Positions 25,744 through 57,217 of a stretch of 64,000 nucleotides of DNA are shown in pieces (position 1 is the stretch's first letter; each line of letters starts with the position of its first letter). The notes under the pieces are model-generated. The model made no database searches and was not told where the DNA came from. It saw nothing but the letters and a program-made list of their open reading frames with translations. The stretch comes from Candidatus Kapaibacterium sp. Its GTDB lineage: Bacteria; Patescibacteriota; Patescibacteriia; UBA9934. The position numbers and the translations under genes were made by a program. The stretch lies in assembly GCA_044350705.1 (NCBI GenBank), contig JBILHA010000001.1, forward strand, positions 113,809 to 177,808, given 5' to 3'.

Positions 25744-25786
25744 AAAAAACCCCACTTTGCTTTTTTGAAGCTTGGTGGGGATTTTT
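25744..25786. terminator. bidirectional rho-independent terminator
   Basis: CCCCAC-(19 nt)-GTGGGG flanked by an A-run (left) and ATTTTT (right). It ends the + strand CDS and also lies just past the 3' CCA of the minus-strand tRNA-Thr 3' half. Confidence 0.6.
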
Positions 25787-25832
25787 GGAGCCACAGACCA
25801 GGATTGAACTGGTGACCTCGTCCTTACCATGG
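25786..25832 (-). other. displaced 3' half of the chromosomal tRNA-Thr(GGU) gene (anticodon loop to CCA), followed by the native terminator
   Basis: Minus strand reads (CC)ATGGTAA-GGACG-AGGTC-ACCAG-TTCAATC-CTGGT-CTGTGGC-T-CCA. Joined to the 5' half at 44521..44561 it makes a perfect intron-less 76-nt tRNA, with anticodon stem CGTCC/GGACG and acceptor GCCGCAG/CTGTGGC. Confidence 0.7.
25821..25832. repeat. 12-bp att core, left copy (TCCTTACCATGG)
   Basis: Identical to 44521..44532. It covers the anticodon loop (tRNA positions 30-41) of the split tRNA-Thr(GGU). Confidence 0.7.
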
Positions 25833-25997
25833 GAGGGGTCGAGTCCGAAAATCCAGATTCTTGGCTAGCTGTAGTAAAGAAACCGTGAAAATGAGGAGCT
25901 TCAGCAATCCATCTACTCGACCACTTCCACAATTAGTTACGCGGTAAATTATGCCGTGATTCAAAGCTACAGTCAAGCTTGATCAGGGCCGAAGGGA

Positions 25998-26399
25998 TTA
26001 CTTGAATGCGATCTCGAAATCGTACATGCCCATTCCACAGGTTCCTTCAAGTGTTCCTTGGGCTTTATTTGCGGCGATAGCAATCGTCTCTACACCCGTC
26101 GGCTCAAGAATACTGTCGTAGTCGAGTTCGAGGATAACTAGGCTAGCCGAGCAGTCAAAGGTGCCCTGTGTCGCTACACGCAACTCAGTGGCCACTCCGG
26201 CCTTTGCCTCAACAAATTTTGGGGTGTAACCGCCTTTGGCTGTGAGGTCGATCACCTGCACCCCGTCCTGCATGCTCACCGCGCTATTGTCGTCCGTGAC
26301 GACGGTGGCGGCATTGTTGCTCTTTAGGGCGAAGGAAAGAACGAGTAAGCCCACGATCGCACCACAGAATATCAACGCAACTTTCGAATCCTTTTGCAT
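25998..26399 (-). CDS. cupredoxin-like copper-binding protein (N-terminal TM anchor)
   Basis: 133 aa. TM helix and C-terminal Cys/Met cluster (TCGMGMYDF). Paralogue of 60509..60913, in the same operon position. Confidence 0.6.
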   Translation of the reverse strand: MQKDSKVALIFCGAIVGLLVLSFALKSNNAATVVTDDNSAVSMQDGVQVIDLTAKGGYTPKFVEAKAGVATELRVATQGTFDCSASLVILELDYDSILEPTGVETIAIAANKAQGTLEGTCGMGMYDFEIAFK

Positions 26400-26412
26400 A
26401 TTTCAATAAAGA

Positions 26413-27417
26413 TTATACGACCCCGAGTGCGCTGAGTGCATTCCACACATTGAAGAGGGCGAGAACGATGACCACGAGACCAGCCGCCTTGAAGAAGACG
26501 CCTTTCCACGGTTTGTTCGAGATCTCCAGCGCGCCGAAGGAAAGAAGCGCAAGCACAGGCAACGTACCAAGAGCGAAAAAGAACATCGTCATGGCACCAG
26601 AGAGGAAACTCCCCGTTGTGAGTGTGTAGACCTGCATCGACTGTGTGAAACCACATGGGAGGAAGAACGTGCCAATACCGACCAGCAGTGGCGCGAGCGC
26701 ATGCGAAGACTCAGCGGTGAGCTTTGTCTTCTTGGCAAAGAAGCTCGGGAGCTTCGGCTGAAGACGCTTGAATGCTGGGAACGTATCGAGCAGGTTCAAG
26801 CCGAGAATGAGCATGACGAGCGCAACCGCGATACTCAGGATCACGTTTCCGACGAGACCAAGCTGGAACAGCTTTCCGGCGCTACCAATAACGCCACCTA
26901 GCAAGAAGAATCCTCCCAAGCGTCCGACATGAAACATCGCCTGTGACGACCACCGTGCATTGTTCTTGGCGGCGCTCGCTGAGAGCGAAAGTACGAGACC
27001 TCCCACAACCGCGAGACACGTCGAGACCGAAGCAATAAGTCCGATGAGCAATGCTGTGCCATAAGTGACATCTCCGGTCGATACGAGGTTCACGATACCC
27101 AGCTGCTGTAACAGCATGAAGCCAATAATGGCCGTCGCTGCTGCTGGCACTGCAATGATGAAATCGCGATAGCTTGGCTTTGTCGCAGGCTTCTCAAGGG
27201 TAAGGCGGTAGCCACCACCGGACACGAATGCAGTGAGCTTCTGCGCAAGCGCGCTCGGGTCATCGGCGAAGTCGCCCGATACCACGACCGCACACACGTT
27301 CAAATCCGCCTTTACATGCGTAACGCCTTCTTTCCCGGGGAGCGTTTCCTCAAGGTAGAAGACGCACGAGGCACAGTGCATGCCTTCGACGTGGAATGTG
27401 TGTTTTGTATCGGCCAT
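26413..27417 (-). CDS. heavy-metal-associated domain fused to a TauE/SafE- or CcdA-like membrane domain
   Basis: N-terminal HMA motif GMHCASCV, then about 8 TM helices. Paralogue of 59493..60509. Confidence 0.65.
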   Translation of the reverse strand: MADTKHTFHVEGMHCASCVFYLEETLPGKEGVTHVKADLNVCAVVVSGDFADDPSALAQKLTAFVSGGGYRLTLEKPATKPSYRDFIIAVPAAATAIIGFMLLQQLGIVNLVSTGDVTYGTALLIGLIASVSTCLAVVGGLVLSLSASAAKNNARWSSQAMFHVGRLGGFFLLGGVIGSAGKLFQLGLVGNVILSIAVALVMLILGLNLLDTFPAFKRLQPKLPSFFAKKTKLTAESSHALAPLLVGIGTFFLPCGFTQSMQVYTLTTGSFLSGAMTMFFFALGTLPVLALLSFGALEISNKPWKGVFFKAAGLVVIVLALFNVWNALSALGVV

Positions 27418-27418
27418 A

Positions 27419-29674
27419 TTAGAGTTTCTTCATCTTGAGACGGAGCGAGTTGAGCACGACGGACACGCTCGACATCGCCATGGCGAAGCCTGCGAACACC
27501 GGGGAGAGCAGCCAGCCGAAGATCGGGAAGAAGATGCCGCTCGCCAAGGGGATGCCGATAATATTGTAGATAAACGCCCAGAACAGGTTCTGACGAATCG
27601 TACGCATCGTGGCCTTTGAAAGTTCGATGGCTTGGGCAATCTTGCGAATATCGCCCTTCAGGAGCGTAACGTCGCTCGTCTCAATCGAGACATCCGATCC
27701 TGTTGCCATCGCAATGCCGACATCGGCCTGCGCCAGTGCCGGAGCATCGTTCACGCCGTCGCCCGCCATCGTCACTACATCGCCCTTGGATTGCAGCTCT
27801 TTGATCAGGGCGAGCTTGTCTTGCGGCAGCACCTGCGCAACGTAACGATCGATACCGAGTTCCTTGGCAACTGACTTTGCTGCACCTTCGTGGTCGCCCG
27901 TTGCCATGATCATTTTGATGCCAAGGCGGTGAAGTTTTTCGATCGTTTCCTTGGCTTCCGGCTTGATTTGATCGCCGATTGCCGCGACTGCCAGCACTTC
28001 GTTCGCCGTGGCAAGAGCGATGAATGTTGCGCTCGTTGGGGCGTTCTTCATCGCGGGCATCTCAAGCTTGAGCGACTTGAGAAGCGCGGGGCCTCCAGCG
28101 TAGTAGGTCGTGCCGTTCAAGTCGCCCTGTATGCCGGTGCCGGGGAGGTTCTTAAAGCCCGTAACCTTACTTGTCTTTACGTTCTTCGATTGAGCATATG
28201 CGACAATCGCCCCAGCCAAGGGATGTTCCGATTGCGATTCAAGCGACGCAAGAATGCCAAGTGACTCCTCGCCGGAGAACGCAACAACTTCCGGCTTTCC
28301 TTTGGTCAGCGTTCCGGTCTTATCGACGACGAGTGCGGTCACCTTATGTAGCTTCTCCAATACTTCTGCATTCTTGATGAGGATGCCGTGTTCAGCGCCG
28401 CGTCTCACACCCACCATGATCGCCGTGGGAGTCGCCAAGCCAAGTGCGCACGGACAGGCGATGACGAGAATCGAGACGAATGAGGAAAGACCGAGGGAGA
28501 GCGTCTGCGCAAACGTCATCGATGATCCCCCGAGAACGAACCAGAGGATAAGTGTGATGACTGCGATAACCAATACGATGGGAACGAAGATTGATGAAAT
28601 CTTGTCCGCGAGTTTCTGAATTGGCGCTTTTGACCCTTGAGCATCCGAAACGAGCGTGATGATATGGGCGAGAAGCGTTTCAGAGCCGACACCGACAGCC
28701 TTCATCGTAAACGAGCCTGTCGTATTCATCGTGCCAGCCGCAACCTTGTCACCAAGTTTTTTCTCAACGGGGATAGGCTCTCCAGTGAGCATCGACTCAT
28801 CGATGAACGAGGAGCTTTCTTCAATCACGCCATCCACCGGCACTTTCATACCCGGCTTCACGAGAACCAGATCACCCTTTTGTACCTGATCAATTGAGAC
28901 AGTAAGCTCTTTGCCATTGCGAACGACAGTTGCGGTCTTCGCTTGTAGACCGAGGAGTTTCTTGATGGCGTCGCCTGTCCTTGCCTTGGCCCGTGCTTCA
29001 AAGTATTTACCAAGCGTAATGAGACCGATAACGACGATAGTTACGTCGTAGTACGTCGCCTTCACGTCGAGGTAGGGTTCAAGCGGCGCTTCAAATGCTG
29101 TGAGAATGAAGCTGTAGAGAAAAGCGGCCATCGTGCCGAGTCCTACCAAGGTATCCATGTCGGCGACGCCGCGGCGGAAGAACATCCAAAGGCCACGGAG
29201 GTACGGGGTACCCACCGTGAACATCATGTATGTCGCAAAAATGGGGAGGAGATGATGGAAGAACTCATAGATCGTTTCCGACATCTCGGGTAGCACGCCG
29301 TACTTTGAGAGGATCTCCCAAATCATCATGCCAGCGGCAAATATGACCATCGGCATCGAGATGACCACTTTCTTACGGAGCGCTTCGGTTTCTCCCGCCG
29401 AGACCTTTGCGTGGTCGTGCCCATCCGCATGCGATCCATGCTGTTCGTGGCTTACGGAAGCCTCTTTCGCATGCAGCTTGTAGCCCATTGGCTCAATCGC
29501 TTGGGAGAGAGCATGCAGGCTTGTCTGAGAGGGATCGAGCGTAATGCGGGCTTCTTCAGTCGCGAGGTTTACTGCCACCTCCTTTACGCCCGGCTGCTGG
29601 CCAAGTGTCTTCTCAATGCGCCCAACGCAGGAAGCGCAGTGCATCCCAGCGACATGTGCTTTTACCTTTTCCAT
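27419..29674 (-). CDS. copA: copper-translocating P1B-type ATPase
   Basis: N-terminal HMA ([12 protein letters not shown]), CPC ([11 protein letters not shown]), [13 protein letters not shown] and the HP motif. Confidence 0.9.
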   Translation of the reverse strand: MEKVKAHVAGMHCASCVGRIEKTLGQQPGVKEVAVNLATEEARITLDPSQTSLHALSQAIEPMGYKLHAKEASVSHEQHGSHADGHDHAKVSAGETEALRKKVVISMPMVIFAAGMMIWEILSKYGVLPEMSETIYEFFHHLLPIFATYMMFTVGTPYLRGLWMFFRRGVADMDTLVGLGTMAAFLYSFILTAFEAPLEPYLDVKATYYDVTIVVIGLITLGKYFEARAKARTGDAIKKLLGLQAKTATVVRNGKELTVSIDQVQKGDLVLVKPGMKVPVDGVIEESSSFIDESMLTGEPIPVEKKLGDKVAAGTMNTTGSFTMKAVGVGSETLLAHIITLVSDAQGSKAPIQKLADKISSIFVPIVLVIAVITLILWFVLGGSSMTFAQTLSLGLSSFVSILVIACPCALGLATPTAIMVGVRRGAEHGILIKNAEVLEKLHKVTALVVDKTGTLTKGKPEVVAFSGEESLGILASLESQSEHPLAGAIVAYAQSKNVKTSKVTGFKNLPGTGIQGDLNGTTYYAGGPALLKSLKLEMPAMKNAPTSATFIALATANEVLAVAAIGDQIKPEAKETIEKLHRLGIKMIMATGDHEGAAKSVAKELGIDRYVAQVLPQDKLALIKELQSKGDVVTMAGDGVNDAPALAQADVGIAMATGSDVSIETSDVTLLKGDIRKIAQAIELSKATMRTIRQNLFWAFIYNIIGIPLASGIFFPIFGWLLSPVFAGFAMAMSSVSVVLNSLRLKMKKL

Positions 29675-29677
29675 AGG

Positions 29678-29944
29678 CTACTTACGCTTGAGTTTGTACA
29701 CTTTAAGGATCTCTTCAATCGCCTTGCTTTCCTTGCCGCTCTTGATCTGGTTGATGGCGCAATGCCCAAGATGGCCTTCAAGCAACATGTCTTCAATATT
29801 GGAAAGACCCTGCTTCGCGGCAGAGGTCTGGGTGATGACATCGATGCAGTAGGTATCTTTCTCAATCATCTCGTGGAGGCCACGAATCTGCCCTTCGATG
29901 ATCTTGAGGCGACGAAGGAGACTCTTCTTATCGGTGTGCTGCAT
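29678..29944 (-). CDS. csoR: CsoR/RcnR-family copper-sensing repressor
   Basis: 89 aa. Conserved Cys...His...Cys ligand pattern (YCIDVITQ...HLGHCAIN). Start moved to the ATG at 29944, by alignment with the chromosomal copy at 56942. Confidence 0.8.
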   Translation of the reverse strand: MQHTDKKSLLRRLKIIEGQIRGLHEMIEKDTYCIDVITQTSAAKQGLSNIEDMLLEGHLGHCAINQIKSGKESKAIEEILKVYKLKRK

Positions 29945-29956
29945 ACGCCCCTCATA

Positions 29957-29974
29957 ATACCCCCTAGGGGGTAT
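29957..29974. promoter_or_regulatory. predicted CsoR operator (perfect 18-bp palindrome ATACCCCCTAGGGGGTAT)
   Basis: GC-tract inverted repeat of the ATACCC-N-GGGTAT type, 13 nt upstream of csoR. A near-identical site lies upstream of the chromosomal csoR. Confidence 0.6.
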
Positions 29975-30002
29975 ATGTAAAGTGTCTGAGGGGATAGCTA
30001 TG

Positions 30003-30803
30003 CTATCGCGAAAGTTTAAGGATTCGGTATGCGGCTTGGGTAACAAGTGCGAATGTGAGTGTACCGATAATGAGGTCAGGCAGCTTGGAATCAAAGATAA
30101 AGACCAGTACACCGGCGATTATGACTCCTACGTTCACGAGCACATCGTTCGCCGTAAAAATCCAGCTCGCCTTCATGTGTACGTCGCCGTGTCGGTGTCG
30201 TTGCAGCAGGTAAAGCGATGCGCTGTTACCAATAAGGGCAAGGATTGAGATGCCGATCATCATCTCGAATGCAGGAGTTTCACCAAAGCCCACGAATCGA
30301 CGAATAACTTCCATGAAGCCAAAGATGGCAAGTGCCACTTGGAGCACGCCACTGAGCCTCGCCACTTTCTTTTTTGTGGCAATAAGGCCGCCAACGGCAA
30401 GGAGGCTGAGGCCATAAACCGTGGCGTCAGCCAGCATGTCCAAGCTATCGGCAACAAGACCCATAGAGTGGGCAATGAAGCCAGTAACCAGCTCAATAAC
30501 AAACAGTCCAAGATTAATTCCAAGTACGGCAAGAAGAAGCTTTCGTTCGTCCTTAACATGTTCGACGGCCCCCTCCTCATACGAAGCGATTGTCTCGGAT
30601 GACAAGAACGAATCCCCAAGTGCTAGTGAAGCAACGTTTTTGGCGAGAACAGCATCGCCACCCTCATGAAAAACGGTTAGGAGACGGCTTTGGAGATCGA
30701 CCTCAACCCTTCTCACTCCATCCGTTTCTTTTAGCTTCATGCGAATCAAGCGTTCCTCCGAAGGGCAATCCATCTTAGATACCCGATAGATGGTTTTCTT
30801 CAT
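30003..30803 (-). CDS. cation-diffusion-facilitator (CDF) transporter TM domain with N-terminal HMA-like domain
   Basis: N-terminal ~70-aa ferredoxin-like domain (MDCPSEE). TM core with metal site (VADSLDMLADATVYGLSL). Paralogue of 33400..34017. Confidence 0.6.
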   Translation of the reverse strand: MKKTIYRVSKMDCPSEERLIRMKLKETDGVRRVEVDLQSRLLTVFHEGGDAVLAKNVASLALGDSFLSSETIASYEEGAVEHVKDERKLLLAVLGINLGLFVIELVTGFIAHSMGLVADSLDMLADATVYGLSLLAVGGLIATKKKVARLSGVLQVALAIFGFMEVIRRFVGFGETPAFEMMIGISILALIGNSASLYLLQRHRHGDVHMKASWIFTANDVLVNVGVIIAGVLVFIFDSKLPDLIIGTLTFALVTQAAYRILKLSR

Positions 30804-30811
30804 ATCGCGGG

Positions 30812-31048
30812 CTACTTTCTACCCCACGCATATCGTACGAGGAGAGCTGTGGCAATTGGCCAAAAGATGACGGCGAAGAGGTTGAGTGTTGGCGTGAGGG
30901 TGTAAAACCTGAAATCGATCGGCAAGTCGCTACTCAAAAGAAATGCCCAGTGAACAATAGTCTGGTTTACCGCGATACCCGCCAAAAGTTTTGCCACTTC
31001 TCTCTTGTTGATTTTCATATAGATATTAATAGTTTTTGCACTTATCAA
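30812..31048 (-). CDS. small hypothetical membrane protein
   Basis: 78 aa with two hydrophobic helices. Confidence 0.3.
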   Translation of the reverse strand: MISAKTINIYMKINKREVAKLLAGIAVNQTIVHWAFLLSSDLPIDFRFYTLTPTLNLFAVIFWPIATALLVRYAWGRK

Positions 31049-31340
31049 TCATGTCTCCCTGTTTATCGAGTATCTTTCCGGCCGCTCGAACAATGGCACC
31101 GACCTCCCGCTGAGACACGCGATAAAAAACCTGCCGTCCTTTCTTGGTTCTTTGGACAAGATGACACTCCAAAAGGCACGCGAGATGCGCCGATGTATTC
31201 GGCTGTGAGAGTTCCGTTTCTTTAACGATCTCCGAAACGGTCTTCGGGCCATCTATGAGAGCGTTCAAAATGGCGAGTCGTGACCGATCAGCAAACCCCT
31301 TCAGAAGCCGAGATGCGAGCGTTAATTGTTGTGCGTTCAT
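31026..31340 (-). CDS. ArsR/SmtB-family metalloregulator
   Basis: wHTH LAILNALIDGPKTVSEIVKETELSQPNTSAHLACLLECHLV, including the metal-sensing Cys pair. Confidence 0.8.
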   Translation of the reverse strand: MNAQQLTLASRLLKGFADRSRLAILNALIDGPKTVSEIVKETELSQPNTSAHLACLLECHLVQRTKKGRQVFYRVSQREVGAIVRAAGKILDKQGDMIDKCKNY

Positions 31341-31456
31341 AATTATATAACTATCTACTTATATAATATCACGACACGAACCCGATCACGCACCAAAAAT
31401 ATTGGCTGGAATAAAGTTAATTTGTGATGGAAGAGTAATTCGCTTACACTGGGGCC

Positions 31457-31876
31457 ATGAATTTGGGGTTTACTCAACAGAATTTCTTGTCCGCCTTTGG
31501 TCGACGCATGGCCACCGCGCTCTTCTTTTGCGTGATGTTCCTTTTGTTTGTCGTGACGTGCCATCCGCTGAGCAATGATGCGCGCTTCGAGCTTGCAGGC
31601 ACTGTAGACGATTGCTGTACCGAGCACGTCACAGAAGCGAGAGATGCGCACGCATCGCCGTTGGCTGATATTGTGCTCCCGAATGGTACCGACTTCATCA
31701 CGACCCTTGCCGTCTTTGCTGCCGTTGTTTTCTTCACGTGGCTTGTCGTGGTGCCGATTACCAAAAGCACCGTACAGCTCCGTGATCGGCTTTTGCGATG
31801 GTTATGGGCGATGCCGTGGCCCTTTGCATGGAGCGGCGGCTATCTCCCGTACTTCAGTCCAATGCGCGATGCATAG
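31457..31876 (+). CDS. hypothetical small membrane protein with DDCC motif (uncertain)
   Basis: Two TM helices and a Cys pair. Competing ORFs exist on the opposite strand, so the region is unresolved. Confidence 0.25.
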   Translation: MNLGFTQQNFLSAFGRRMATALFFCVMFLLFVVTCHPLSNDARFELAGTVDDCCTEHVTEARDAHASPLADIVLPNGTDFITTLAVFAAVVFFTWLVVVPITKSTVQLRDRLLRWLWAMPWPFAWSGGYLPYFSPMRDA

Positions 31877-31917
31877 CATGAGATGAATCAGCTCACGCTT
31901 ATTCATTTTATTTTGCT

Positions 31918-32694
31918 ATGGAAAACGAACAGAAGAATTCGGGCATGCTCGATTCAATGAACCCTAAAGCCTCATTTGTTTTTGGCTTGGTAACTGGTAT
32001 TGCGGCAATCTCGATCCTGATGCAATTCGGTCTCTTGGGAAGCAACGTAAACGCTGCTGACGTCGCAGACTCGGGATCGGCGGTCGTCGCAAACACAAAG
32101 ACTGGTGGAACGAACACCGCGACGGCAAAAGCCCCTACCGGCAAGGTTCCTGAGGTTACTGACGAAGATCATATTCGCGGAGATAAAGATGCCCCCGTCA
32201 CGTTCATCGAGTACTCGGACTTTGAATGTCCTTTCTGCAAAAGGTTTGCGCCAACTGTCGAGCAGATCCTTGAGGAGTACGACGGCGAGGTGAAAGTCGT
32301 CTACCGTCACTATCCGTTGTCATTCCATGCGAACGCACAGAAGGAAGCCGAGGCTTCTGAATGTGCGAACGAACTTGGGGGTAATGATGCCTTCTGGGAG
32401 TACCACGACGCCATCTTTGAGCGTGGAGAAGCAGGAGGAACCGGATTCGCGCTTGATGATCTCGTTCCACTTGCCGAGGAACTTGGCTTGAACGGCGATA
32501 AGTTCCAAGACTGTCTCGATAGCGGCAAGTACGCCAGCCACGTTAAAGAAGACATGGCGGGAGGCGCGGCTGCGGGCGTGACAGGAACGCCGGGGTCGTT
32601 CATCATCGACGCCAAGGGCGACGCGCAGCTCGTTTCTGGTGCCCTCCCGTACGAATCAATCAAAACCATGCTCGATGAAGCGCTTGCAAAGTAG
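31918..32694 (+). CDS. DsbA-like thiol:disulfide oxidoreductase, membrane-anchored
   Basis: N-terminal TM helix. Thioredoxin fold with active site CPFC. Confidence 0.7.
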   Translation: MENEQKNSGMLDSMNPKASFVFGLVTGIAAISILMQFGLLGSNVNAADVADSGSAVVANTKTGGTNTATAKAPTGKVPEVTDEDHIRGDKDAPVTFIEYSDFECPFCKRFAPTVEQILEEYDGEVKVVYRHYPLSFHANAQKEAEASECANELGGNDAFWEYHDAIFERGEAGGTGFALDDLVPLAEELGLNGDKFQDCLDSGKYASHVKEDMAGGAAAGVTGTPGSFIIDAKGDAQLVSGALPYESIKTMLDEALAK

Positions 32695-32753
32695 CCTCAT
32701 GTTTCGGGAGGGCGCTTGTTCGCCCTCCCGGCAGCATATCTAACCTCCCCCAT

Positions 32754-33398
32754 ATGGAAGATCAGCTTACCCCACAGCCTGCAACGGAGCAGTCGCGACC
32801 GCGTCCGGCACGTTTTACGGCAAAGCAAAAGAAGATGATGGTGCTTGCAGCGATGATCGTCATTCCGCTTGCACTCGCGTTTTATTTCAAGAGCCACTTC
32901 ATCGCCGCGACGGTGGACGGCAGCCCGATCAGCCGTTTGACCGTCATCCGTGAATTGGAACGGCAAGGGGGTGAAACGGTGCTTAATGCACTCATTACGG
33001 ATAAACTCGTCGATGCCGAGGCGGCCCGAAAAGGTATCGTTCTTTCGGATGAAGAACTCAATGAAGAGATCGATAAACTCAAAAAAGGGGTTACCGATAT
33101 GGGAGGCTCGTTTGAAGAGGCACTCGCTGAACGAGGCTTTACCGAAGAGAGCCTGCGACGAAACATCGCAACGCAGTTAAAGATCCGCAAACTGCTTGCT
33201 GATGTTATTTCGGTAACCGAGGAAGAGATCGATAGCTACATTACCGAAAGCGGGATCGAGATTCCGGCAGGTAATGAAGCTGAACTTCGAGAGCAAGTCC
33301 GCACCGAACTTGAAGACGGTAAATTTACCCAAGAGGCTGAAGGGTTCATCGAGGGGCTGAAAGCGCAGGCGGATATTACGTATTACGTGAACTACTAG
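32754..33398 (+). CDS. SurA-N-terminal-domain-like periplasmic chaperone, membrane-anchored
   Basis: TM anchor followed by the helical chaperone domain typical of the SurA/PrsA N-terminus. No PPIase domain. Confidence 0.5.
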   Translation: MEDQLTPQPATEQSRPRPARFTAKQKKMMVLAAMIVIPLALAFYFKSHFIAATVDGSPISRLTVIRELERQGGETVLNALITDKLVDAEAARKGIVLSDEELNEEIDKLKKGVTDMGGSFEEALAERGFTEESLRRNIATQLKIRKLLADVISVTEEEIDSYITESGIEIPAGNEAELREQVRTELEDGKFTQEAEGFIEGLKAQADITYYVNY

Positions 33399-33399
33399 T

Positions 33400-34017
33400 A
33401 TGTCCGATTGTTGCGCCATCCCTTCAAAGGCAGACGTCGCGAAGCAGAGAACGATGCTCTGGATCGTCCTCACGCTCAACGCTGTTATGTTTTTCGTAGA
33501 AGTCTACGCCGGCTTTGTCGCCCGTTCGAGCGCCGTTCTTGCCGATTCGCTCGATATGCTTGGCGACGCATTGGTCTACAGCCTGAGCATTTGGTCGCTT
33601 CAGAAAACGGTGCTCTGGAAAGGCCGAGTCTCCCAAGTAAAAGGCTACCTCATGGCGCTGCTCGCGCTTGGCGTCATCGGCGAGGCGATCTGGAAAATCT
33701 TCGCTTCGGTGGAAATTGAAGGTTCGGTCATGATGGGCATCGGCGTCCTCGCGCTGGTCGTAAATACCGTCTGCTTCACCCTACTGAACCGCCACAAGAA
33801 AGACGGTATCAATCTGCGTTCGGCGTGGATTTGCTCGCGCAATGATCTTCTCGCAAATACCGGCGTCTTGATTGGCGGCTTGCTCGTCCTGACCACGTCC
33901 TCGACGTGGCCGGACATCATCATCGCACTGGCAATTGGGTGCTACGTTCTCAAGAGTGCAATTGACGTGATCCGCGAGTCGAGAGAAGAAACGGAACACC
34001 ACGAAAAATGCGTATGA
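33400..34017 (+). CDS. cation-diffusion-facilitator transporter (TM domain only)
   Basis: LADSLDMLGDALVYSLSI and HxxxD-type sites in six TM helices. No cytoplasmic C-terminal domain. Confidence 0.65.
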   Translation: MSDCCAIPSKADVAKQRTMLWIVLTLNAVMFFVEVYAGFVARSSAVLADSLDMLGDALVYSLSIWSLQKTVLWKGRVSQVKGYLMALLALGVIGEAIWKIFASVEIEGSVMMGIGVLALVVNTVCFTLLNRHKKDGINLRSAWICSRNDLLANTGVLIGGLLVLTTSSTWPDIIIALAIGCYVLKSAIDVIRESREETEHHEKCV

Positions 34018-34445
34018 ACCTCAAGCGTTGGATACACTACATCCCTCATGCGGCATGGGCGATGGCGCTCATTGCCACCATGGGGAGCCTTTACTTCAGC
34101 GAGGTCATGCATTTGCCGCCGTGCGTGCTGTGCTGGTACCAACGCATCGCAATGTACCCGCTTGTCGCCATTCTTGCAGTGGGCATTCTCCGCAAGGATA
34201 AGGGGGTTGCCGTCTATGCGCTCCCGCCGGTACTTGTCGGACTTGGTATCTCTATTTACCACAATCTTCTCTACTGGAAGATCCTTCCCGAAAGCGTCGC
34301 GCCGTGCACGCTCGGCGTCTCCTGTACGACAAAGTTCTTCGAATGGTTTGGTTTTATCACCATCCCGTTCCTGTCACTAACAGCCTTTGTCGTACTCACG
34401 GCTCTCCTCATTACTTACCACCGACTTTCAAAGAAATATGATTAG
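34008..34445 (+). CDS. dsbB: disulfide bond formation protein B (DsbB/BdbC-like)
   Basis: Four TM helices. First loop CVLCWYQR, second loop APCTLGVSCT. Confidence 0.7.
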   Translation: MRMNLKRWIHYIPHAAWAMALIATMGSLYFSEVMHLPPCVLCWYQRIAMYPLVAILAVGILRKDKGVAVYALPPVLVGLGISIYHNLLYWKILPESVAPCTLGVSCTTKFFEWFGFITIPFLSLTAFVVLTALLITYHRLSKKYD

Positions 34446-35088
34446 CGATGATGCAAAAGTGCTCCTTGGTATCGGACTGGTGACGGGCATGATTTTTGCC
34501 GGGGTCATCATTACCGGAAATAAATCAGCTCAGCCTCCTGAGCCGGTAGCCGCAGAAATTCTCATCCGCGACGACAGCTGGCAGCAGGAGACGCCTAATG
34601 CAGCCATTACTCTCGTGGAGTTCCTCGACATGGAATGCGAGGCCTGCCGTGCGGCACATCCGCAAATCAAGCAGATTCTCGAAGACTACCAAGGACAGAT
34701 CACGTACGTCGTACGATATTTCCCGCTCCACAAAAACTCTGAGCTCGCCATGAAGACCGTGGAAGCAGCCGGAGAGCAGGGTAAGTACTGGGAGATGTTC
34801 GATCTGCTTTTCGAGCGCCAGACCGAATGGGGAGAAAAATCTGAGCCGCAAACTGTACTCTTTACAGCATATGCCGAAGAGCTTGGCCTTGATATGGCGA
34901 AGTTCAGTACAGCCCTTGAAAGTTCTACATACGAAGACAAGATCGAACGCGATCGACGTGACGGTATTACGGCAGGCGTAAGCGGCACCCCGACCGTCTT
35001 CATCAATGGCGAAGTCGTAGAGGCATTCCCGACGTACAACACGCTCAAGGGGCTCATCGATCAGGAGCTCGCAGAACAGGCGGAGTAG
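34438..35088 (+). CDS. DsbA-like thioredoxin-fold oxidoreductase
   Basis: TM anchor. Active site CEAC in a thioredoxin fold. Start moved to the ATG at 34438, which overlaps the dsbB stop by 8 nt. Confidence 0.7.
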   Translation: MISDDAKVLLGIGLVTGMIFAGVIITGNKSAQPPEPVAAEILIRDDSWQQETPNAAITLVEFLDMECEACRAAHPQIKQILEDYQGQITYVVRYFPLHKNSELAMKTVEAAGEQGKYWEMFDLLFERQTEWGEKSEPQTVLFTAYAEELGLDMAKFSTALESSTYEDKIERDRRDGITAGVSGTPTVFINGEVVEAFPTYNTLKGLIDQELAEQAE

Positions 35089-35091
35089 CTT

Positions 35092-35553
35092 GTGCTCGAA
35101 ACTCTCGCCATCTTCGCCGCTCGGGACCTCATCTTCTTGCTGATCATTGGCGCTGGGGTCGTATTTTTCGCTATTCATCGAAAGGATAGGCTTCGTTTCG
35201 CGGTGCTCGGCACAATTGGAGGCGGAATCTCTTTCGTACTTTCGAGGCTCGTGAAACTGGCGTACTTCAATCCGAGGCCATTTACACTCGACGGTATCCC
35301 GCCGATCATTCCTCATGAGGCTGATAATGGGTTTCCATCAGACCATGCACTCCTCGCATTTACCTTGGCGGCCATCGTCTACACGCGAAATCGGAAGGCT
35401 GGAATCGTTTTCTCCATCGTGGCCACCCTCATCGGCACTGCGCGAGTGTTTCTTCGCATTCATTCGCCGATAGATATCGTAGGAAGCCTCGCGATCTCGC
35501 TCGTCTCCGTGTTCGCTGTGCATCGTATACTTGCTCAACGAACGTCCAAGTAA
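35092..35553 (+). CDS. PAP2-family phosphatase (undecaprenyl-diphosphatase-like)
   Basis: PSDH...SRxxxxxHxxxD signature (PSDHALLAF...RIHSPIDIV). GTG start. Confidence 0.6.
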   Translation: MLETLAIFAARDLIFLLIIGAGVVFFAIHRKDRLRFAVLGTIGGGISFVLSRLVKLAYFNPRPFTLDGIPPIIPHEADNGFPSDHALLAFTLAAIVYTRNRKAGIVFSIVATLIGTARVFLRIHSPIDIVGSLAISLVSVFAVHRILAQRTSK

Positions 35554-35556
35554 ATT

Positions 35557-36408
35557 ATGAAACGCGCTAATAAGAAGAAGCGGAGCGGGCTGCTTTACCT
35601 TGCCGCCGTTTCAATGACAACTCTCGTCGTAACCGGATTCACATCCTCCTTCGTTCGATCGACCTATCCCGATGACGGGGCGGCTATTCCTGATGCAGAC
35701 GTCAATACGTCCTCGGACACGCCGAGCGGAGAGGAGACGTCTGAATCGTTTGCGAAGACGCGGACGTTTGGAGTATCCGAAAAAGGACGCGAGATCGAAG
35801 GTTATGAACTTGGAACCGGGAGTGAATGTCTACTCTTCTTCGGCGGTATCCATGGGAACGAAAAAGGCACCGTTGTGCTCCTTGAACAGTTGGCCGATGA
35901 GGTCATAGCGAAGCCTGAACTCGTCGCGCCGACCAAACGGGTTGTCATCATTCCGCTCTTGAACCCCGACGGATATTCCGAAGGAATCTATCGCGACAAC
36001 ACTAATGGCGTAAACCTTAATCGCAACTTCTTAACGACGGGATGGACAGCGAACCCGGACACAACGACATTTGCAGGGTTACAACCGTTCTCGGAAGCTG
36101 AAAGCAGCGTGCTTCGTGACGTCGTGGAGGAATGCCAACCGAGCCTCATGCTCGCTTTCCATTCACAAGGCGGTGTGGTTTCTCCGGAACTCGGGAAGGA
36201 TTCAATGGCGCTCGCCGAGTGGTATATCGCCAAAACTGGCTACGCGCACTATAACGACTGGGATTACCCCGGAACGGCAACAAAGTGGTTTACCGAGACC
36301 ACGGGCAAACCGGCACTTACCGTCGAGATCACCAATCACATGGAAAGCGATTGGGAGATCAACCAAGACGCATTGCTGCAGCTCATAAATAGCGAGCGAG
36401 GCTTCTAG
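35557..36408 (+). CDS. M14-family zinc carboxypeptidase-like protein
   Basis: Signal/TM anchor. HGNE zinc motif (FGGIHGNEKGT) and a downstream His/Glu. Confidence 0.55.
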   Translation: MKRANKKKRSGLLYLAAVSMTTLVVTGFTSSFVRSTYPDDGAAIPDADVNTSSDTPSGEETSESFAKTRTFGVSEKGREIEGYELGTGSECLLFFGGIHGNEKGTVVLLEQLADEVIAKPELVAPTKRVVIIPLLNPDGYSEGIYRDNTNGVNLNRNFLTTGWTANPDTTTFAGLQPFSEAESSVLRDVVEECQPSLMLAFHSQGGVVSPELGKDSMALAEWYIAKTGYAHYNDWDYPGTATKWFTETTGKPALTVEITNHMESDWEINQDALLQLINSERGF

Positions 36409-36755
36409 CCCAAGAGGCTCCGCAAGAGGCGAATCTCGTCCTTGTCGTACTCCCCACCATACCTCTCAGTCAGATGATCAAGCACGGCGAGAGAAATACG
36501 AAGTTTTTCAAGCGTATCGCGCATCGAGCAATACAGATGAACTGCGGTCGTGTCATCGAGTTCGATCTCTAGCAACCCATTTGTACCCTCCATGTGTACG
36601 GAGATCTTCTCGTCATCTCGAACTCGGCATTCAATCTGCGAGGCGAAGTCAGGAACCTTGGCCTCGACGGCATCTTGAACCTCTTGAAAGAGCGTCTTGG
36701 CATCAAACTCATGGTTAAGGTCGTAAATTGAGATAGAGACTGGCATAGATAACAA
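36405..36755 (-). CDS. hypothetical protein
   Basis: 116-aa acidic ORF upstream of the recombinase, overlapping it by 4 nt. Confidence 0.4.
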   Translation of the reverse strand: MLSMPVSISIYDLNHEFDAKTLFQEVQDAVEAKVPDFASQIECRVRDDEKISVHMEGTNGLLEIELDDTTAVHLYCSMRDTLEKLRISLAVLDHLTERYGGEYDKDEIRLLRSLLG

Positions 36756-36756
36756 G

Positions 36757-37662
36757 TTAGAAGATCGAATTAATAGGGTTCTTTTCGATACTGGCGTGCA
36801 CCTGCTTTTGATTTACTTGAGTGTAGATCATGGTAGTCGTAATCTCCTTGTGGCCGAGCGCTCGTTGGACGGAAACGATATCGTTGCTCCCCATATAGGT
36901 TTGCGTGGCGAACGTGTGCCGGAATTTGTGTGGCTTGATCCTGATGCCCGTCCGGTCACCAATGTGCCGAGTGAGATGCTTAAGGCCATTAGCCGTAAAT
37001 CGAGTCCGACCGTGGTAAGAAACCCACAGCCAGATCGACTCCACCTTTTGCTTCCCACGTTCTTGAAGGTATCGCTCCAGCAGTTCGCGAAGACGGAAGC
37101 ATAGCGGCACCGATCTTGCCATTCGGCTCTTTGAGGTTTCGGCCCGTACACGAATAACCCCGTTCTCCCAATCAAGATCCGTAACTCTGAGGTTGAGTAA
37201 CTCCCCCTTTCGCAGCCCGGCCATAGCCATCACACCGAACATTGCTACATTGCGGACGCGCTCAAAGTCGGTCTGTGCGCTCATGTTGACCTGATACATG
37301 ATCGATTCCATTTCCGCCTGCGTGTAGTACTCCGGCAAGTTTTTGACCAATGGAGGAGTCGGTATCGAAGCGAGTGGATTTACGCCGAGATGACCACGAT
37401 CAACGCACCACTTCAAGAAAGGCGAAAGGTTTTTTCGGTATGAGATAACCGTTGTCGCCTTCCATCCACGCTCTCGCTCTCCCCTGAGGAGGAACTGACG
37501 CAAGATACCTTCCGTCAGCTCGTCCGTCGTCTTCACGGGAAACATCTTCAAAAGCAGGCGAAAGCTCTCGTGATAGCTTTGCATCGTTGCATCCGAACGC
37601 CGTTTCAGGGTTCCATCCTGACACTCGTGGATGAATTGATTGTGCGCCTGCCGTACATCCAC
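36757..37662 (-). CDS. tyrosine-type site-specific recombinase (XerC/D-like)
   Basis: R...HxxR...Y catalytic constellation (HKFRHTFAT...LGHKEITTTMIYTQV). Confidence 0.8.
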   Translation of the reverse strand: MDVRQAHNQFIHECQDGTLKRRSDATMQSYHESFRLLLKMFPVKTTDELTEGILRQFLLRGERERGWKATTVISYRKNLSPFLKWCVDRGHLGVNPLASIPTPPLVKNLPEYYTQAEMESIMYQVNMSAQTDFERVRNVAMFGVMAMAGLRKGELLNLRVTDLDWENGVIRVRAETSKSRMARSVPLCFRLRELLERYLQERGKQKVESIWLWVSYHGRTRFTANGLKHLTRHIGDRTGIRIKPHKFRHTFATQTYMGSNDIVSVQRALGHKEITTTMIYTQVNQKQVHASIEKNPINSIF

Positions 37663-37665
37663 AAA

Positions 37666-38004
37666 TTATTTCATTTCCCACCCGCGCTTTTCCGCGAGAT
37701 TTTGACTTAAGTCGTAAACCATCTCGTACATTCGCCTGTCATCCGCGAGGGAGTCGATCAACTCCTGCATTTCCGCATCCCCGACTGATACGTGGTAATA
37801 GTCGCGGAAATGCATCCAAAACGCCTCAACGAAATCGTATGAGAAGAAAGTTTTGCGGTCCGGATGCTCAAGATAAAGCTCGCGGTCCCGCTTCTCGTCC
37901 TCATCAGCTTTGGCAAACATCTTTTCAACTTCGGGCCGCTCAAGGTACTCAAAGGCTTTTTGAGCATCTTTCCGCGTCCCGATCTCTACGTCACTCGTGT
38001 TCAT
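37666..38004 (-). CDS. hypothetical protein
   Basis: 112-aa ORF between two recombinase genes. Confidence 0.4.
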   Translation of the reverse strand: MNTSDVEIGTRKDAQKAFEYLERPEVEKMFAKADEDEKRDRELYLEHPDRKTFFSYDFVEAFWMHFRDYYHVSVGDAEMQELIDSLADDRRMYEMVYDLSQNLAEKRGWEMK

Positions 38005-38015
38005 AGCATGGGTTA

Positions 38016-39176
38016 TTAATTATTTTTCGAGGCCAATTTCACGATCTCTGCAATACGTTGAAGATCCTCCTCACCGAGCGTTGATCTCCCCGACGTAGCC
38101 TCGAAGTCAATCCCGGTGAGTAGCTCGATCTGCCTTTCTTCGTCGATCTTTCCATAACCGTACGAGCCAAAGGTCGTTGAAACATGCTCATGACCGAGAT
38201 TCTGGCTGATCGCTTTCTTTTGTTCCTCGGTCAACGGGACCTTCATAAATTCTTTGACGACAAGGTGACGAAAGGTGTGAGGGTGAAAATACGGGACGTC
38301 TGCCGCATTAAAGCGTTTCTCGAAAATCTTCCGAGCAGAACTGCTCTTCTCCCAGAACTCGTTCGAAACATCACCTGAGCTGTAGTAACTAATGTTTTCC
38401 TCCCCCTGTTCCAATTTTGTTGCCGGGAAAATGGGATCGTTCTGACCGCGGCCTTTTTCGTTCACCAGATAGTCGTACCAGTCGAGAAAATACTCTCTCG
38501 GCTTCTCGTATTTCAGGGGGAACAGGGCCGTTATGATCCGTTTTGCATACTTCGTTTTCACCCCCAGAGCGGGATTTTGATCAACAACGCAATCATTCCG
38601 ATCAAACGATCCGATCGGGAGACTTACAATTGCGGAGATGCGCGCCCCGGTCAGTAAGGCGAACGAGATGAGCGCCCGGTCTCGCCGATCCACCTCAGTT
38701 AGGGGTTCGATGGATTCAATGACCACTCGTACCTGCTCGATTGTAGGAGATTTCCGCCGTCCCGCCTGTCTCGCCTGCCGACTCTCTTTCTTGCCGAGGT
38801 TTAGGAAATCGACGTCCGTAATTTTGATGCTCTGTCGATATGCATCCTGTACCGCCAGCCACCTGAAGAAAGCCTTGAGCTTTCGCAGGGTGTGATACTG
38901 GTACGAGAGACTCAACGTTTCATCAGCCACGCCCGGTCGGCTCGCGAGCCAATCCTTGAATCGTTTTGCCCGGTCTTTATCGAAAAGGCGAAAGTCTTCG
39001 TTGTTGGTGAACTCTTGCCACCGGAGCAGTGCCTTCTCGTAGGTATCGACTGAATTTTCCGCGTACCCACCGGAGTCACGTTGATAGTCGAAAAAGCGCC
39101 GCTTCATCAACTCGTTTTGATAGCGAATTTCATCGCTCGTTTTGACCTTATTTTTCGCTTCATTCAATTCACTCAT
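38016..39176 (-). CDS. tyrosine-type integrase/recombinase
   Basis: HPHTFRHLVV...LGHEHVSTTFGSYGY in the C-terminal catalytic domain. SAM-like N-terminal domain. Confidence 0.75.
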   Translation of the reverse strand: MSELNEAKNKVKTSDEIRYQNELMKRRFFDYQRDSGGYAENSVDTYEKALLRWQEFTNNEDFRLFDKDRAKRFKDWLASRPGVADETLSLSYQYHTLRKLKAFFRWLAVQDAYRQSIKITDVDFLNLGKKESRQARQAGRRKSPTIEQVRVVIESIEPLTEVDRRDRALISFALLTGARISAIVSLPIGSFDRNDCVVDQNPALGVKTKYAKRIITALFPLKYEKPREYFLDWYDYLVNEKGRGQNDPIFPATKLEQGEENISYYSSGDVSNEFWEKSSSARKIFEKRFNAADVPYFHPHTFRHLVVKEFMKVPLTEEQKKAISQNLGHEHVSTTFGSYGYGKIDEERQIELLTGIDFEATSGRSTLGEEDLQRIAEIVKLASKNN

Positions 39177-39196
39177 ATAGTCGTCTGTGAGAGTGA

Positions 39197-39601
39197 TCAG
39201 TTAATCCTTTTAGGAGACGTCGGGATAAACCTGCGCATAATCGAGCCGCAGTCCCCACAATTTGCCACCTCTTGCAGTTGCTCGCGGTTGTCTTTGCCGA
39301 CGAGCTTTCCTGTCTTCTCCGTCCTGACACTTTCGAGATCAACGCGCTTCGCTTCGTGACATCTCAGGCAGTAGAACTCTCCCGGCTGGAGCTTCACTCT
39401 ATGATCCTGTCGGCGCTTGCTGAGAAATGCCTTAAGTTGATCGCCATAGAACAGGAGTGGATTGGTGTCTGAACGGATAGGTTTCAGCCCGTCATCTACC
39501 CAGCGGTAGATGCTCCCCCTTCTAACATCGAGCAGATCAGCGATCTCCTGCGGCGTATACGTTCGGCGATCTTTGATGATCCGAAGATTGTGATTACGCA
39601 T
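39197..39601 (-). CDS. HTH DNA-binding protein with C-terminal zinc ribbon (excisionase/regulator candidate)
   Basis: Excisionase-like HTH (QEIADLLDVRRGSIYRWV) plus CLRCH...CGDCG. Start moved to the internal ATG at 39601. Confidence 0.45.
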   Translation of the reverse strand: MRNHNLRIIKDRRTYTPQEIADLLDVRRGSIYRWVDDGLKPIRSDTNPLLFYGDQLKAFLSKRRQDHRVKLQPGEFYCLRCHEAKRVDLESVRTEKTGKLVGKDNREQLQEVANCGDCGSIMRRFIPTSPKRIN

Positions 39602-39611
39602 ATCAGGAGGA

Positions 39612-41726: not shown

Positions 41727-41744
41727 AACCCGAAACACCCTCAT

Positions 41745-41772: not shown

Positions 41773-41786
41773 GATACATTGCGCGC

Positions 41787-57208: not shown

Positions 57209-57217
57209 TTTTTTTCT

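Follow-up and report, generated by a model that had tools for sequence, protein, structure and literature searches.

The stretch of DNA considered here, called the window below, is 64,000 nucleotides long and comes from a Patescibacteria genome. Between positions 25833 and 44521 it contains an integrative element of 18,689 bp, which carries its cargo at one end (25998-36408). The cargo consists of a copper (cop) operon, two genes for cation diffusion facilitator (CDF) transporters with an ArsR-type regulator gene, and a set of genes for disulfide-bond formation (Dsb). A first-pass annotation had listed most of these genes. All of those listed are present where it had placed them, as judged by Pfam and NCBIfam, and their catalytic and ligand motifs are intact. 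Two small conserved open reading frames (ORFs), orf68 and orf139, have to be added to that inventory. Patescibacteria, or candidate phyla radiation (CPR) bacteria, have very small genomes and depend on other cells. To our knowledge, little has been established about how they acquire accessory traits. In what follows, L-numbers (L007, L012, L105 and so on) label comparison loci or genomes and P-numbers (P0001 and so on) label the CopA sequences that were compared.

The borders of the element are marked by a host tRNA-Thr(GGU) gene that has been split. The displaced 3' half lies on the attL side (25786-25832, minus strand) and the 5' half on the attR side (44522-44561, minus strand). Each half ends with a shared core of 11 nt, which reads CCATGGTAAGG on the tRNA strand and CCTTACCATGG on the plus strand and is repeated directly at 25822-25832 and 44522-44532. 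Rejoining the halves gives a canonical 76-nt tRNA-Thr(ggt), and the split falls in the anticodon loop. The target is uninterrupted in relatives. An exact 40-nt string that spans the join is present intact in 12 GTDB species genomes, and in L019, L022 and L024 an intact tRNA-Thr(GGU) follows tRNA-Thr(UGU) and tRNA-Tyr in the same order as in the window. TIM and TPR genes adjoin this tRNA cluster in L019 and L017. The first-pass annotation had described a tRNA-integrated element, and this holds: a tyrosine integrase, a split tRNA, a displaced fragment and a repeated core are all there. However, the target is the split tRNA-Thr(GGU) and not an annotated tRNA. Default tRNA scans of the window detect only tRNA-Tyr and tRNA-Thr(UGU), at 44.7-44.9 kb.

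The element-side arms form an inverted repeat, GACC(C/A)CCTCC, around CATGGTAA. The circular attP junction deduced in silico reads ...GACCCCTCC CATGGTAA GGAGGTGGTC..., and in our reading this layout is the one expected for a tyrosine-recombinase core site that mimics an anticodon stem-loop. A search for a third core, which would point to a nested element, found CCTTACCATGG with one mismatch allowed only at the two ends and at an unrelated site (20028), and a repeat scan of the window gave nothing further convincing. A tyrosine recombinase would have recombined the attP core with the anticodon stem-loop of the host gene, leaving the host tRNA as two halves. The boundaries are observed, and the enzyme that we infer is most likely int3 (see below).

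What is unusual is how the split tRNA is compensated for. In canonical islands, according to PMC4383910, the gene that was split is restored at the junction by sequence of the island itself. This is not what is found here. The element sequence does not complete the 5' half: ARAGORN finds no tRNA at the attR junction (44488-44562), and the Rfam tRNA model scores 16.3 bits there against a gathering score of 29 bits. Instead, a complete tRNA-Thr(GGU) gene that belongs to the element (44130-44406, minus strand) is located about 115 nt inward of the attR junction and 22 nt from int3. The anticodon stem of this tRNA is CAUCC/GGAUG and that of the host tRNA is CGUCC/GGACG. The change is a compensated pair, which makes the element tRNA a distinct and coherent tRNA. 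The 64-kb window contains no tRNA-Thr(GGU) other than the split host copy and this one.

The element tRNA is interrupted after position 5 of the anticodon loop by about 201 nt (44170-44370, detected in the intron mode of ARAGORN), probably a group I intron. Insertion at this position is as in the classical Arg and Ile2 tRNA introns (10.1101/2020.01.27.920355). The insert begins after a U (position -1) and ends in G. Folding it together with its L115 homologue in RNAalifold predicts two features. One is helix P1, formed by exon GGU and intron GCC, where the U at -1 makes a U.G pair with the intron at the 5' splice site. The other is a hairpin of 7 bp, capped by GAAA, in which four pairs are compensatory. 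The string AAAUGCGGGA within the insert was first read as a group I P element. That reading was dropped when the L115 comparison placed the string in one arm of the covarying hairpin. The Rfam Intron_gpI model has no match in 44170-44370, either at its gathering threshold or up to E=10, in search intervals of two sizes, and only a chance-level BjrC68 match appeared. According to Williams (10.1101/2020.01.27.920355), the seeds of that model include no bacterial sequences, and genomes from unnamed phyla often have group I introns in their tRNA genes. The equivalent tRNA of L115 (142-418) is likewise interrupted by an insert of about 201 nt, and the replacement tRNA of L116 (7029-7104) has no intron.

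Which enzyme acts at the tRNA site? The element encodes three tyrosine recombinases, and int3 (43157-44107, minus strand, probable start 44053; Pfam Phage_integrase 3.5e-33) is most likely the integrase. Its homologues in L115 (82% identity) and L116/L117 (69%) adjoin the same kind of split tRNA-Thr junction. In L116/L117 the int3 relative lies beside TIM-TPR genes, after a tRNA 5'-half fragment and the core, and the element there contains a terminase. int3 is also 52-57% identical to many proteins annotated as XerD. A host housekeeping XerC/D was considered for it and rejected as the principal interpretation, because in three different genomes the closest relatives of int3 are located at this same split-tRNA junction. 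The other two recombinases are found in a minus-strand block (36405-39817) between the cargo and the rest of the element, as identified with Pfam and PHROGs. From the cargo side this block comprises the small ORF p116, the 301-aa int1 (36757-37662; 37% identical to int3), the small ORF p112, the 386-aa int2 (38016-39176) and an excisionase-like HTH_17 protein (39197-39817). The same order is found in L115 (8269-11387) and L110 (6644-8947).

The remainder of the backbone (40023-43091) has genes on both strands: p274 (minus), a LOOT RNA (40961-41089, plus), a DUF4352 protein (41148-41726, plus) and p434 (plus). p116, p112, p274 and p434 have no family match in Pfam or PHROGs. L115, which comes from another sample and has a GC content of 0.42, shares this backbone, with int3 (82%), DUF4352 (83%), LOOT, p274 (38%), HTH (51%), int2 (73%), p112 and int1 (82%) in the same order and with the same architecture at the attR/tRNA/int3 junction. 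The LOOT RNA (Rfam RF03000) scores 52.3 bits in the window, 48.2 bits in L115 (6794-6922, minus, between the DUF4352 and p274 homologues) and 82.8 bits in the prophage-like L105 (18089-18211, plus). It may represent a non-coding RNA associated with mobile elements in Patescibacteria. At the opposite end of the island is an outward promoter-like site, TTGACT-17-CATAAT (25948-25976, minus strand, 10/12 matches), which faces the displaced tRNA half and the adjoining host gene.

The copper unit (25998-29981) is encoded on the minus strand with gaps of 1-13 nt between its genes. It starts with csoR (29678-29944), for a Cu(I)-sensing repressor (Pfam Trns_repr_metal 4.7e-24, 85 bits) with the Cys-His-Cys ligands C33, H58 and C62. 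Next is copA (27419-29674), the product of which is predicted to be a P1B-1 Cu(I)-exporting ATPase. Its E1-E2 ATPase and HAD domains are recognized by Pfam (2.5e-58 and 1.7e-34), as is its HMA domain, and the motifs MHCASC, CPC, DKTGT, SEHP, GDGVND, YN(x4)P and MxxSS are intact. DKTGT is at residue 451, and the metal-site signature that is present in both CopA copies of the window consists of CPC 407 (TM6), YNIIGIP 703 (TM7) and MAMSS 732 (TM8) of this protein, where TM denotes a transmembrane segment. The third gene (26413-27417) encodes a CopZ-like HMA domain joined to a six-TM DsbD_2 membrane domain (Pfam DsbD_2 1e-30, HMA 1.4e-8), with a CASC motif and conserved TM cysteines C134 and C255; its PDB matches are confined to the HMA domain. 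The last gene (25998-26399) encodes a cupredoxin-like protein (Pfam Cupredoxin_1 34.4 bits, cut-off 27) with an N-terminal TM segment (3-28), C83 and the motif C121-G-M-G-M. The only PDB matches of this protein are to Streptococcus pneumoniae CupA (4F2E) and the N-domain of CopA (4F2F), with the Cys and CxMxM aligned. The matches are weak (E 5.6e-5 and 0.02, the latter for CupA itself), and they suggest a membrane-anchored Cu(I) chaperone.

Upstream of csoR is the best promoter-like site of the region, TTTACA-16-TATTAT (29954-29981, minus strand). It encloses an 18-bp perfect palindrome, ATACCCCCTAGGGGGTAT (29957-29974), which is GC-rich, located at csoR's own promoter and a candidate CsoR operator. 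The palindrome is conserved in three other loci, among them L007 and L108, where it also precedes csoR, and a one-base variant in the same promoter context precedes the chromosomal csoR of the window (56913-56930). CsoR would bind ATACCCCCTAGGGGGTAT and be released by Cu(I), which would switch on CopA, the CopZ-domain/DsbD_2 protein and the CupA-like chaperone. With a near-identical chromosomal operator and CsoR proteins that are 82% identical, the two cop operons are likely to cross-regulate.

The second part of the cargo begins 58 nt beyond csoR with CDF1 (30003-30803, minus strand), a 266-aa transporter with a degenerate HMA-like N-domain (Pfam Cation_efflux 1.1e-17, HMA 3.3e-6; TIGR01297 73.1 bits, below cut-off). 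It is followed by orf68 (30812-31018, minus strand), which encodes a small membrane protein that has no family match, is called in public contigs and is 81% identical in L108. Then comes arsR (31026-31340, minus strand), for an ArsR/SmtB metalloregulator (NF033788 77.5 bits, cut-off 55). Aligned to CmtR (PDB 2JSC), this protein keeps C55-x3-C59, and it has C101 near its C-terminus. The ligand cysteines align, and the score in the CmtR equivalog model is 59 bits against a cut-off of 150. The 116-nt spacer between the divergent arsR and orf139 contains a candidate operator, TTATATAA-N8-TTATATAA (31343-31366). L108 retains both half-sites, one mismatch aside (TTATATGA), around a different spacer. 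CDF2 (33400-34017, plus strand; 205 aa, N-terminal CC) exceeds the cut-off of TIGR01297 (98.1 bits versus 82.35; Pfam Cation_efflux 9.6e-22). Both CDFs have the six-TM Cation_efflux domain, and neither has a match to the ZT_dimer C-terminal cytoplasmic domain, which is present in the extra CDFs of L105 and L111. The best NCBIfam equivalog of both is ZitB-like and below cut-off. They are inferred to be two zinc/cadmium-type exporters.

CDF2 sits inside the Dsb operon, beginning 1 nt after the upstream stop codon and overlapping dsbB. The order on the plus strand (31457-36408) is orf139, DsbA1, SurA_N, CDF2, DsbB, DsbA2, PAP2 and M14, with gaps of 41, 59, 1, -10, -8, 3 and 3 nt. The junctions thus range from -10 to +59 nt, and after the first two each is a gap of at most 3 nt or an overlap. 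The run from orf139 to M14 is most simply read as a single operon. orf139 (31457-31876) encodes a two-TM membrane protein without a Pfam or PHROG match. It has the same position in L108 (85% identity) and L105 (41%), and a 33% homologue elsewhere in L007 is not beside any Dsb gene.

The products of the operon include two predicted thiol oxidases and a predicted membrane oxidase. DsbA1 (31918-32694) is membrane-anchored (TM 16-42), has a CPFC active site (Pfam Thioredoxin_4 2e-26, DSBA 1e-20) and counts BdbD (3EU3) and copper-tolerance ScsC proteins among its PDB relatives. DsbA2 (34438-35088), with CEAC, is also anchored (TM 5-28; Pfam Thioredoxin_4 8e-29); its 216-aa start is that of the public gene calls. 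Both have the T-P of the cis-Pro loop that goes with the DsbA/BdbD fold (at 224 and 184, respectively). DsbB (34008-34445) is a quinone-linked membrane oxidase of the BdbC type (NF002849 139.9 bits, cut-off 124; Pfam DsbB) with the cysteine pairs C39xxC42 and C100/C106. The set also includes a membrane-anchored SurA_N/PrsA-N-like chaperone domain without a PPIase domain (32754-33398; Pfam SurA_N_3 9.5e-13), for which partial NCBIfam PrsA/PPIase matches cover the N-terminal part only. The first-pass annotation had counted all of these as an oxidative-folding set together with the last two genes of the operon. Those two appear to be cell-wall enzymes and not folding factors. One is an undecaprenyl-diphosphatase-like PAP2 phosphatase (35092-35553; Pfam PAP2 5.6e-16, NCBIfam undecaprenyl-diphosphate phosphatase below cut-off) in which Kx6RP, PSDH and Rx5Hx3D are intact. 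The other is a zinc peptidase of family M14 (35557-36408; Pfam Peptidase_M14 5e-18) with HxxE, similar to the murein peptide amidase MpaA (NCBIfam 3e-13, below cut-off).

How might these parts work together? The CmtR-like ArsR would sense metals of the Cd/Pb/Zn type and control two divergent transcripts, arsR-orf68-CDF1 and orf139 to M14. Thiophilic divalent metals would release the repressor, so that the Dsb system is induced together with both CDFs, as exporters of the metal. DsbB, DsbA1 and DsbA2 would keep the cysteines of exported proteins as disulfides, unavailable to thiophilic metals, and would limit copper-induced mis-oxidation. This step draws on published dsbA genetics. Cadmium binds free thiols, and cells unable to form disulfides are very sensitive to it (PMC7089426). 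Moreover, dsbA is essential for cadmium tolerance in Pseudomonas putida, and dsbA mutants of Escherichia coli and Burkholderia cepacia are Cd/Zn-sensitive (PMC12041740). The PAP2 and M14 enzymes would support turnover of the lipid carrier and of peptidoglycan peptides. Taken as a whole, the cargo would protect the envelope under metal stress.

The copper unit is the second of its kind in the window. It is a mirror image of the chromosomal operon at 56942-60913 (plus strand), which with its operator palindrome starts at 56913 and continues with CsoR, CopA, HMA-DsbD_2 and cupredoxin. The gene order is the same, as the first-pass annotation had reported. However, its figure of 70-80% protein identity fits only CsoR (82%) and CopA (71%). 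Identity falls along the operon, to 61% for HMA-DsbD_2 and 47% for the cupredoxin. Its other claim, that the island is compositionally distinct and uses GC-rich codons, is borne out. GC content is 0.529 in the cargo, 0.513 in the whole island and 0.462 in the chromosomal backbone. Within the window, 18 island ORFs have a median GC content at third codon positions (GC3) of 0.60, and 40 backbone ORFs have one of 0.40 (Mann-Whitney p=1.3e-8). Where the paralogues share a residue, GC3 is 0.58-0.65 in the island copies and 0.28-0.45 in the chromosomal ones, with GGC and GCC strongly enriched in the former. The same codon is used at only 20-38% of these residues, which means that synonymous sites between the paralogues are saturated. 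Some compositional outliers lie outside the island. The backbone ORF at 51345-52079 (minus strand) has a GC3 of 0.71, in a 1-kb interval with a GC content of 0.53, and a weak match to GNAT acetyltransferases (E 3.7e-4); it may be a small foreign insertion or a spurious antisense ORF. Two 1-kb intervals, 20001-21000 and 50001-51000, have a GC content of about 0.40 against a backbone mean of 0.46.

A neighbour-joining tree of CopA (63 sequences, 742 alignment columns retained, 100 bootstraps) separates the two copies. The island copy groups with P0001-P0006 (bootstrap 0.86), with P0007 as next neighbour, and the chromosomal copy groups with P0029 (bootstrap 1.0; 97.6% identity), its further relatives being P0024, P0030 and P0031. 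The two copies fall in different clades and are sisters in 0/100 bootstraps, and the chromosomal copy is less close to island CopA than are over 20 cluster representatives found on other contigs. The first-pass annotation had named two outcomes that would tell against a foreign origin, a composition indistinguishable from the backbone and CopA paralogues that branch together. Neither was found, and the tree rules out a duplication within this genome. In contrast, acquisition from a higher-GC donor is upheld by the CopA tree, the saturated synonymous differences, the precise tRNA-splitting insertion and the presence of the same element end at a different flank. The last of these was seen in L012, from another assembly, where the cop genes, the end of the island and the tRNA half match at 93% identity and are followed by unrelated sequence and a different gene. 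The named relatives of the CopA proteins of the window are all Patescibacteria, Parcubacteria or Paceibacterota. Higher-GC lineages of the right kind exist, since L116, which has the TIM-TPR synteny of the window's left flank, has a housekeeping GC3 of 0.56-0.63. On these comparisons the cargo package is shown to come from another Patescibacterium of higher GC and not from a distant phylum.

The surroundings of related cop operons add some detail. The closest relatives of the island operon outside the island are also beside mobility genes, a serine recombinase in L007 (2630-9619) and an IS200-type Y1 transposase in L009/L010. In L007 a beta-propeller gene stands between csoR and copA. In the window, a bacterial type IB topoisomerase gene (55207-56211, plus strand; Top1B_N_bact and Topoisom_I, public gene calls) lies just upstream of a Gmad2 protein gene and the chromosomal cop operon.

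The combination of cop, CDF and Dsb genes is not confined to this element. L110 carries the same island (99-100% identical). L108 is 77-97% identical and has the same arsR-orf68-CDF1 genes and Dsb operon, with csoR at the contig edge and a different right flank that lacks an integrase. Beyond these, the package recurs with 41-80% protein identity on unrelated backbones, and in all it is found on four other mobile backbones. In L105-107 a tRNA-Gln and a large serine recombinase are followed by CopA (56%), DsbD_2, cupredoxin, orf139, DsbA (72%), SurA_N, CDF2 (75%), DsbB (80%), DsbA (75%), a further CDF, PAP2 and M14 (60%); downstream of M14 are a large terminase (phrog_38, 9e-73) and a ParB-methylase. 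L111/112 has two CDFs, ArsR, cupredoxin, DsbD_2, CopA and CsoR, divergent from a DsbA...DsbB-DsbA block, with TraC/TraG-like genes nearby. In L113 phage tail genes precede DsbB-DsbA, DUF1775, cupredoxin, ArsR, a CDF and other metal transporters. L114 (IMGVR_UViG_3300048073_000092, 226-8412) has a ParB-methylase, large terminase, portal and minor head protein and then directly CsoR and a CopA that is 58% identical to the island copy, which looks like phage-borne copper efflux. Scans of IMG/VR for close relatives of DsbA2 and int3 found nothing, and a profile of 22 int3 relatives retrieved only generic integrases of 25-38% identity. No homologues of the backbone proteins (p116, p112, p274, p434, the recombinases and others) were found in the other cargo-bearing loci; the cargo is shared and the vehicle is not. 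As judged from gene content and identity, the package is shown to circulate among different mobile backbones of the phylum, prophages included. This, with the CDF gene inside the Dsb operon, supports the earlier suggestion that Dsb and metal-export genes travel together, within this clade of modules.

The best explanation, and one that can be held with good confidence, is that the cargo is one end of an integrative element of 18,689 bp inserted in tRNA-Thr(GGU), that it combines a CsoR copper unit with a CmtR-like ArsR/CDF/Dsb unit, and that it was acquired from a higher-GC Patescibacterium. Could the second cop operon instead be a duplicate that arose in this genome and diverged, its composition reflecting local mutation bias or selection? 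Such an origin would fit with the matching content and relative order of the four genes, the common operator type and the placement of both copies in a Patescibacteria-specific CopA clade. However, each CopA has closer relatives elsewhere than the other copy, codons are shared at so few identical residues, and the island copy lies inside a tRNA-splitting element that also occurs at a different flank. Such a duplication is very improbable. Only marginally more credible is a chimera of assembly or binning that joined higher-GC DNA at a repeated tRNA sequence. The DNA does come from a metagenome, the junctions do lie in a tRNA sequence that is conserved among relatives, and composition does change abruptly at 25.8 kb. 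Yet these junctions, with their flanks, are shared by five contigs that differ in sample and assembler (JGI 3300042340, 462 kb; JGI and NCBI, 190 kb; two Logan runs), and a chimera would not produce complementary tRNA halves, an 11-nt core and an attP-like inverted repeat. L115 and L116 show the same architecture.

Two other possibilities carry more weight. The element might be the remnant of a temperate phage and its cargo a moron or auxiliary block. In favour of this, L105 has related cargo flanked by a serine recombinase and a large terminase, and in L113 such cargo adjoins tail genes. CsoR-CopA is also found on an IMG/VR contig that encodes terminase, portal and head proteins, the int3 relative of L116 (69%) belongs to a terminase-bearing element, and the DUF4352 protein matches phrog_806. 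Against this, no capsid, portal, terminase, tail or lysis gene is recognizable at 36.4-44.1 kb, where PHROGs and Pfam match only integrases, the excisionase-like HTH protein and phrog_806 (function unknown), and there are no virion genes in the 11 kb available of L115. Moreover, the backbone proteins have no homologues in the phage-like loci. A phage remnant is thus unlikely, if worth keeping in mind. Slightly less so, and still doubtful, is that the Dsb, PrsA-like, PAP2 and M14 genes are general envelope-maintenance cargo that has hitch-hiked beside metal exporters. PAP2 and M14 are enzymes of the cell wall, Dsb genes occur widely among Patescibacteria, and a general linkage of short CDFs to Dsb genes had to be rejected: among 80 metagenome loci with relatives of CDF2 (40-51% identity), only 3 of the 36 loci of at least 5 kb have Dsb neighbours. 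What speaks for more than coincidence is the translational coupling of a CDF gene inside the Dsb operon, the divergent arrangement of that operon and the gene for a metal sensor across a spacer with a conserved repeat, the persistence of the package on unrelated backbones and the Cd/Zn sensitivity that follows loss of DsbA.

Nevertheless, several observations weigh against the explanation of a metal-defence cargo on an integrative element. The Dsb-CDF link is lineage-specific; it belongs to this clade of modules and does not hold generally. For PAP2 and M14, no part in metal tolerance has been established. Metal specificity is deduced from motifs and from equivalog scores below threshold (CmtR 59 versus 150; ZitB 63 versus 408), and the expression, transport and redox activity of the cargo are all deduced from sequence. 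The choice of int3 among the three recombinases relies on its adjacency in three loci. No excised circle was seen, nor an empty site in the same population or species, and the island is present in 5/5 contigs with island CopA. Finally, no relaxase, coupling protein or type IV secretion gene was found by Pfam or PHROGs at 36.4-44.1 kb, where four ORFs are without a family. Lacking recognizable transfer machinery, this copy may no longer move by itself.

What would such an element mean? A complete and, by its sequence, apparently functional package for metal tolerance and envelope maintenance is located on a precisely delimited mobile element, and the same package on unrelated backbones, phage-like ones included, points to active gene exchange within the phylum. 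It also points to selection by copper and by metals of the cadmium/zinc type in the groundwater or sediment habitats of these contigs. A metal exporter inside a Dsb operon behind a metal sensor yields a testable hypothesis, namely that disulfide formation is deployed as a metal defence. A broader proposal is tentative, and as a whole it has somewhat less than an even chance of being right. The element would be one member of an undescribed family of Patescibacterial integrative elements, with relatives that include a prophage. Members would use an integrase directed at the anticodon loop of tRNA-Thr(GGU), split the host gene permanently and carry a replacement tRNA beside the integrase, here with a self-splicing intron of the group I type. 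The cargo would be a portable defence cassette against thiophilic metals, exchanged among phages, conjugation-gene loci and islands. With the Dsb genes co-transcribed with a CDF under a CmtR-like sensor, oxidative folding would itself be a metal-induced resistance.

Tolerance islands integrated in tRNA genes are well known as such for metals. What is new is the host phylum, the conserved mobile cop+CDF+Dsb cassette and the intron-bearing replacement of the target tRNA; no directly relevant paper was found on metal islands of Patescibacteria or on tRNA-integrated elements of the CPR. Most parts of the cargo have counterparts in well-studied bacteria. The copper unit resembles the CsoR-CopZ/CopA operons of Bacillus subtilis and Mycobacterium tuberculosis in its Cys-His-Cys CsoR, its GC-rich palindromic operator overlapping the promoter and its P1B-1 ATPase with CPC, YN and MxxSS. 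However, CopZ is represented not by a free protein but by a CopZ-like domain joined to DsbD_2, and a cupredoxin is added. The latter recalls the CopY-CupA-CopA system of S. pneumoniae (CupA PDB 4F2E/2MRY; CopA N-domain 4F2F), where a membrane-anchored protein of the cupredoxin fold with Cys...Cys-x-Met-x-Met is likewise encoded next to CopA. Here the regulator is CsoR and not CopY, the N-domain of CopA is a classical HMA domain and not a cupredoxin, and the match is weak. The ArsR protein has several features in common with M. tuberculosis CmtR (PDB 2JSC), which senses Cd(II) and Pb(II): the ArsR/SmtB fold, Cys-x3-Cys in the recognition helix and a C-terminal Cys. Given its equivalog score far below the cut-off, it is only a relative with the same ligand layout and a putative specificity.

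The Dsb genes invite two comparisons. One is with BdbC/BdbD of B. subtilis: DsbB scores above the cut-off of the BdbC-type NCBIfam model, DsbA1 matches BdbD (PDB 3EU3), and the DsbA-like proteins carry membrane anchors, in keeping with a cell that lacks a periplasm. The differences are that there are two DsbA paralogues and that they form one predicted operon with a CDF, a PrsA-N-like domain, PAP2 and M14 on a mobile element. The other is with ScsABCD of Salmonella, Proteus and Caulobacter, in which Thioredoxin_4 proteins of the DsbA family are also genetically tied to copper tolerance, and three ScsC structures (4GXZ, 4XVW and 6NEN) are among the PDB relatives of DsbA1. However, the Scs partner is the DsbD-like reductant ScsB, whereas the partner here is an oxidant of the DsbB type, and no homologue of ScsB or ScsD was found.

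The vehicle itself is best compared with the tRNA-integrated islands of the Islander catalogue (PMC4383910). Both have a tyrosine recombinase, a tRNA target, a short core at each end, a displaced tRNA fragment that marks the far end, a foreign composition and accessory cargo. In contrast to those islands, the junction here is not a tRNA, a separate intron-bearing tRNA-Thr(GGU) some 115 nt away takes its place, and there are three recombinases. The target tRNA is replaced and not regenerated, which departs from the textbook rule for tRNA-integrating islands, and programs that locate islands by way of a regenerated target would overlook elements of this kind.

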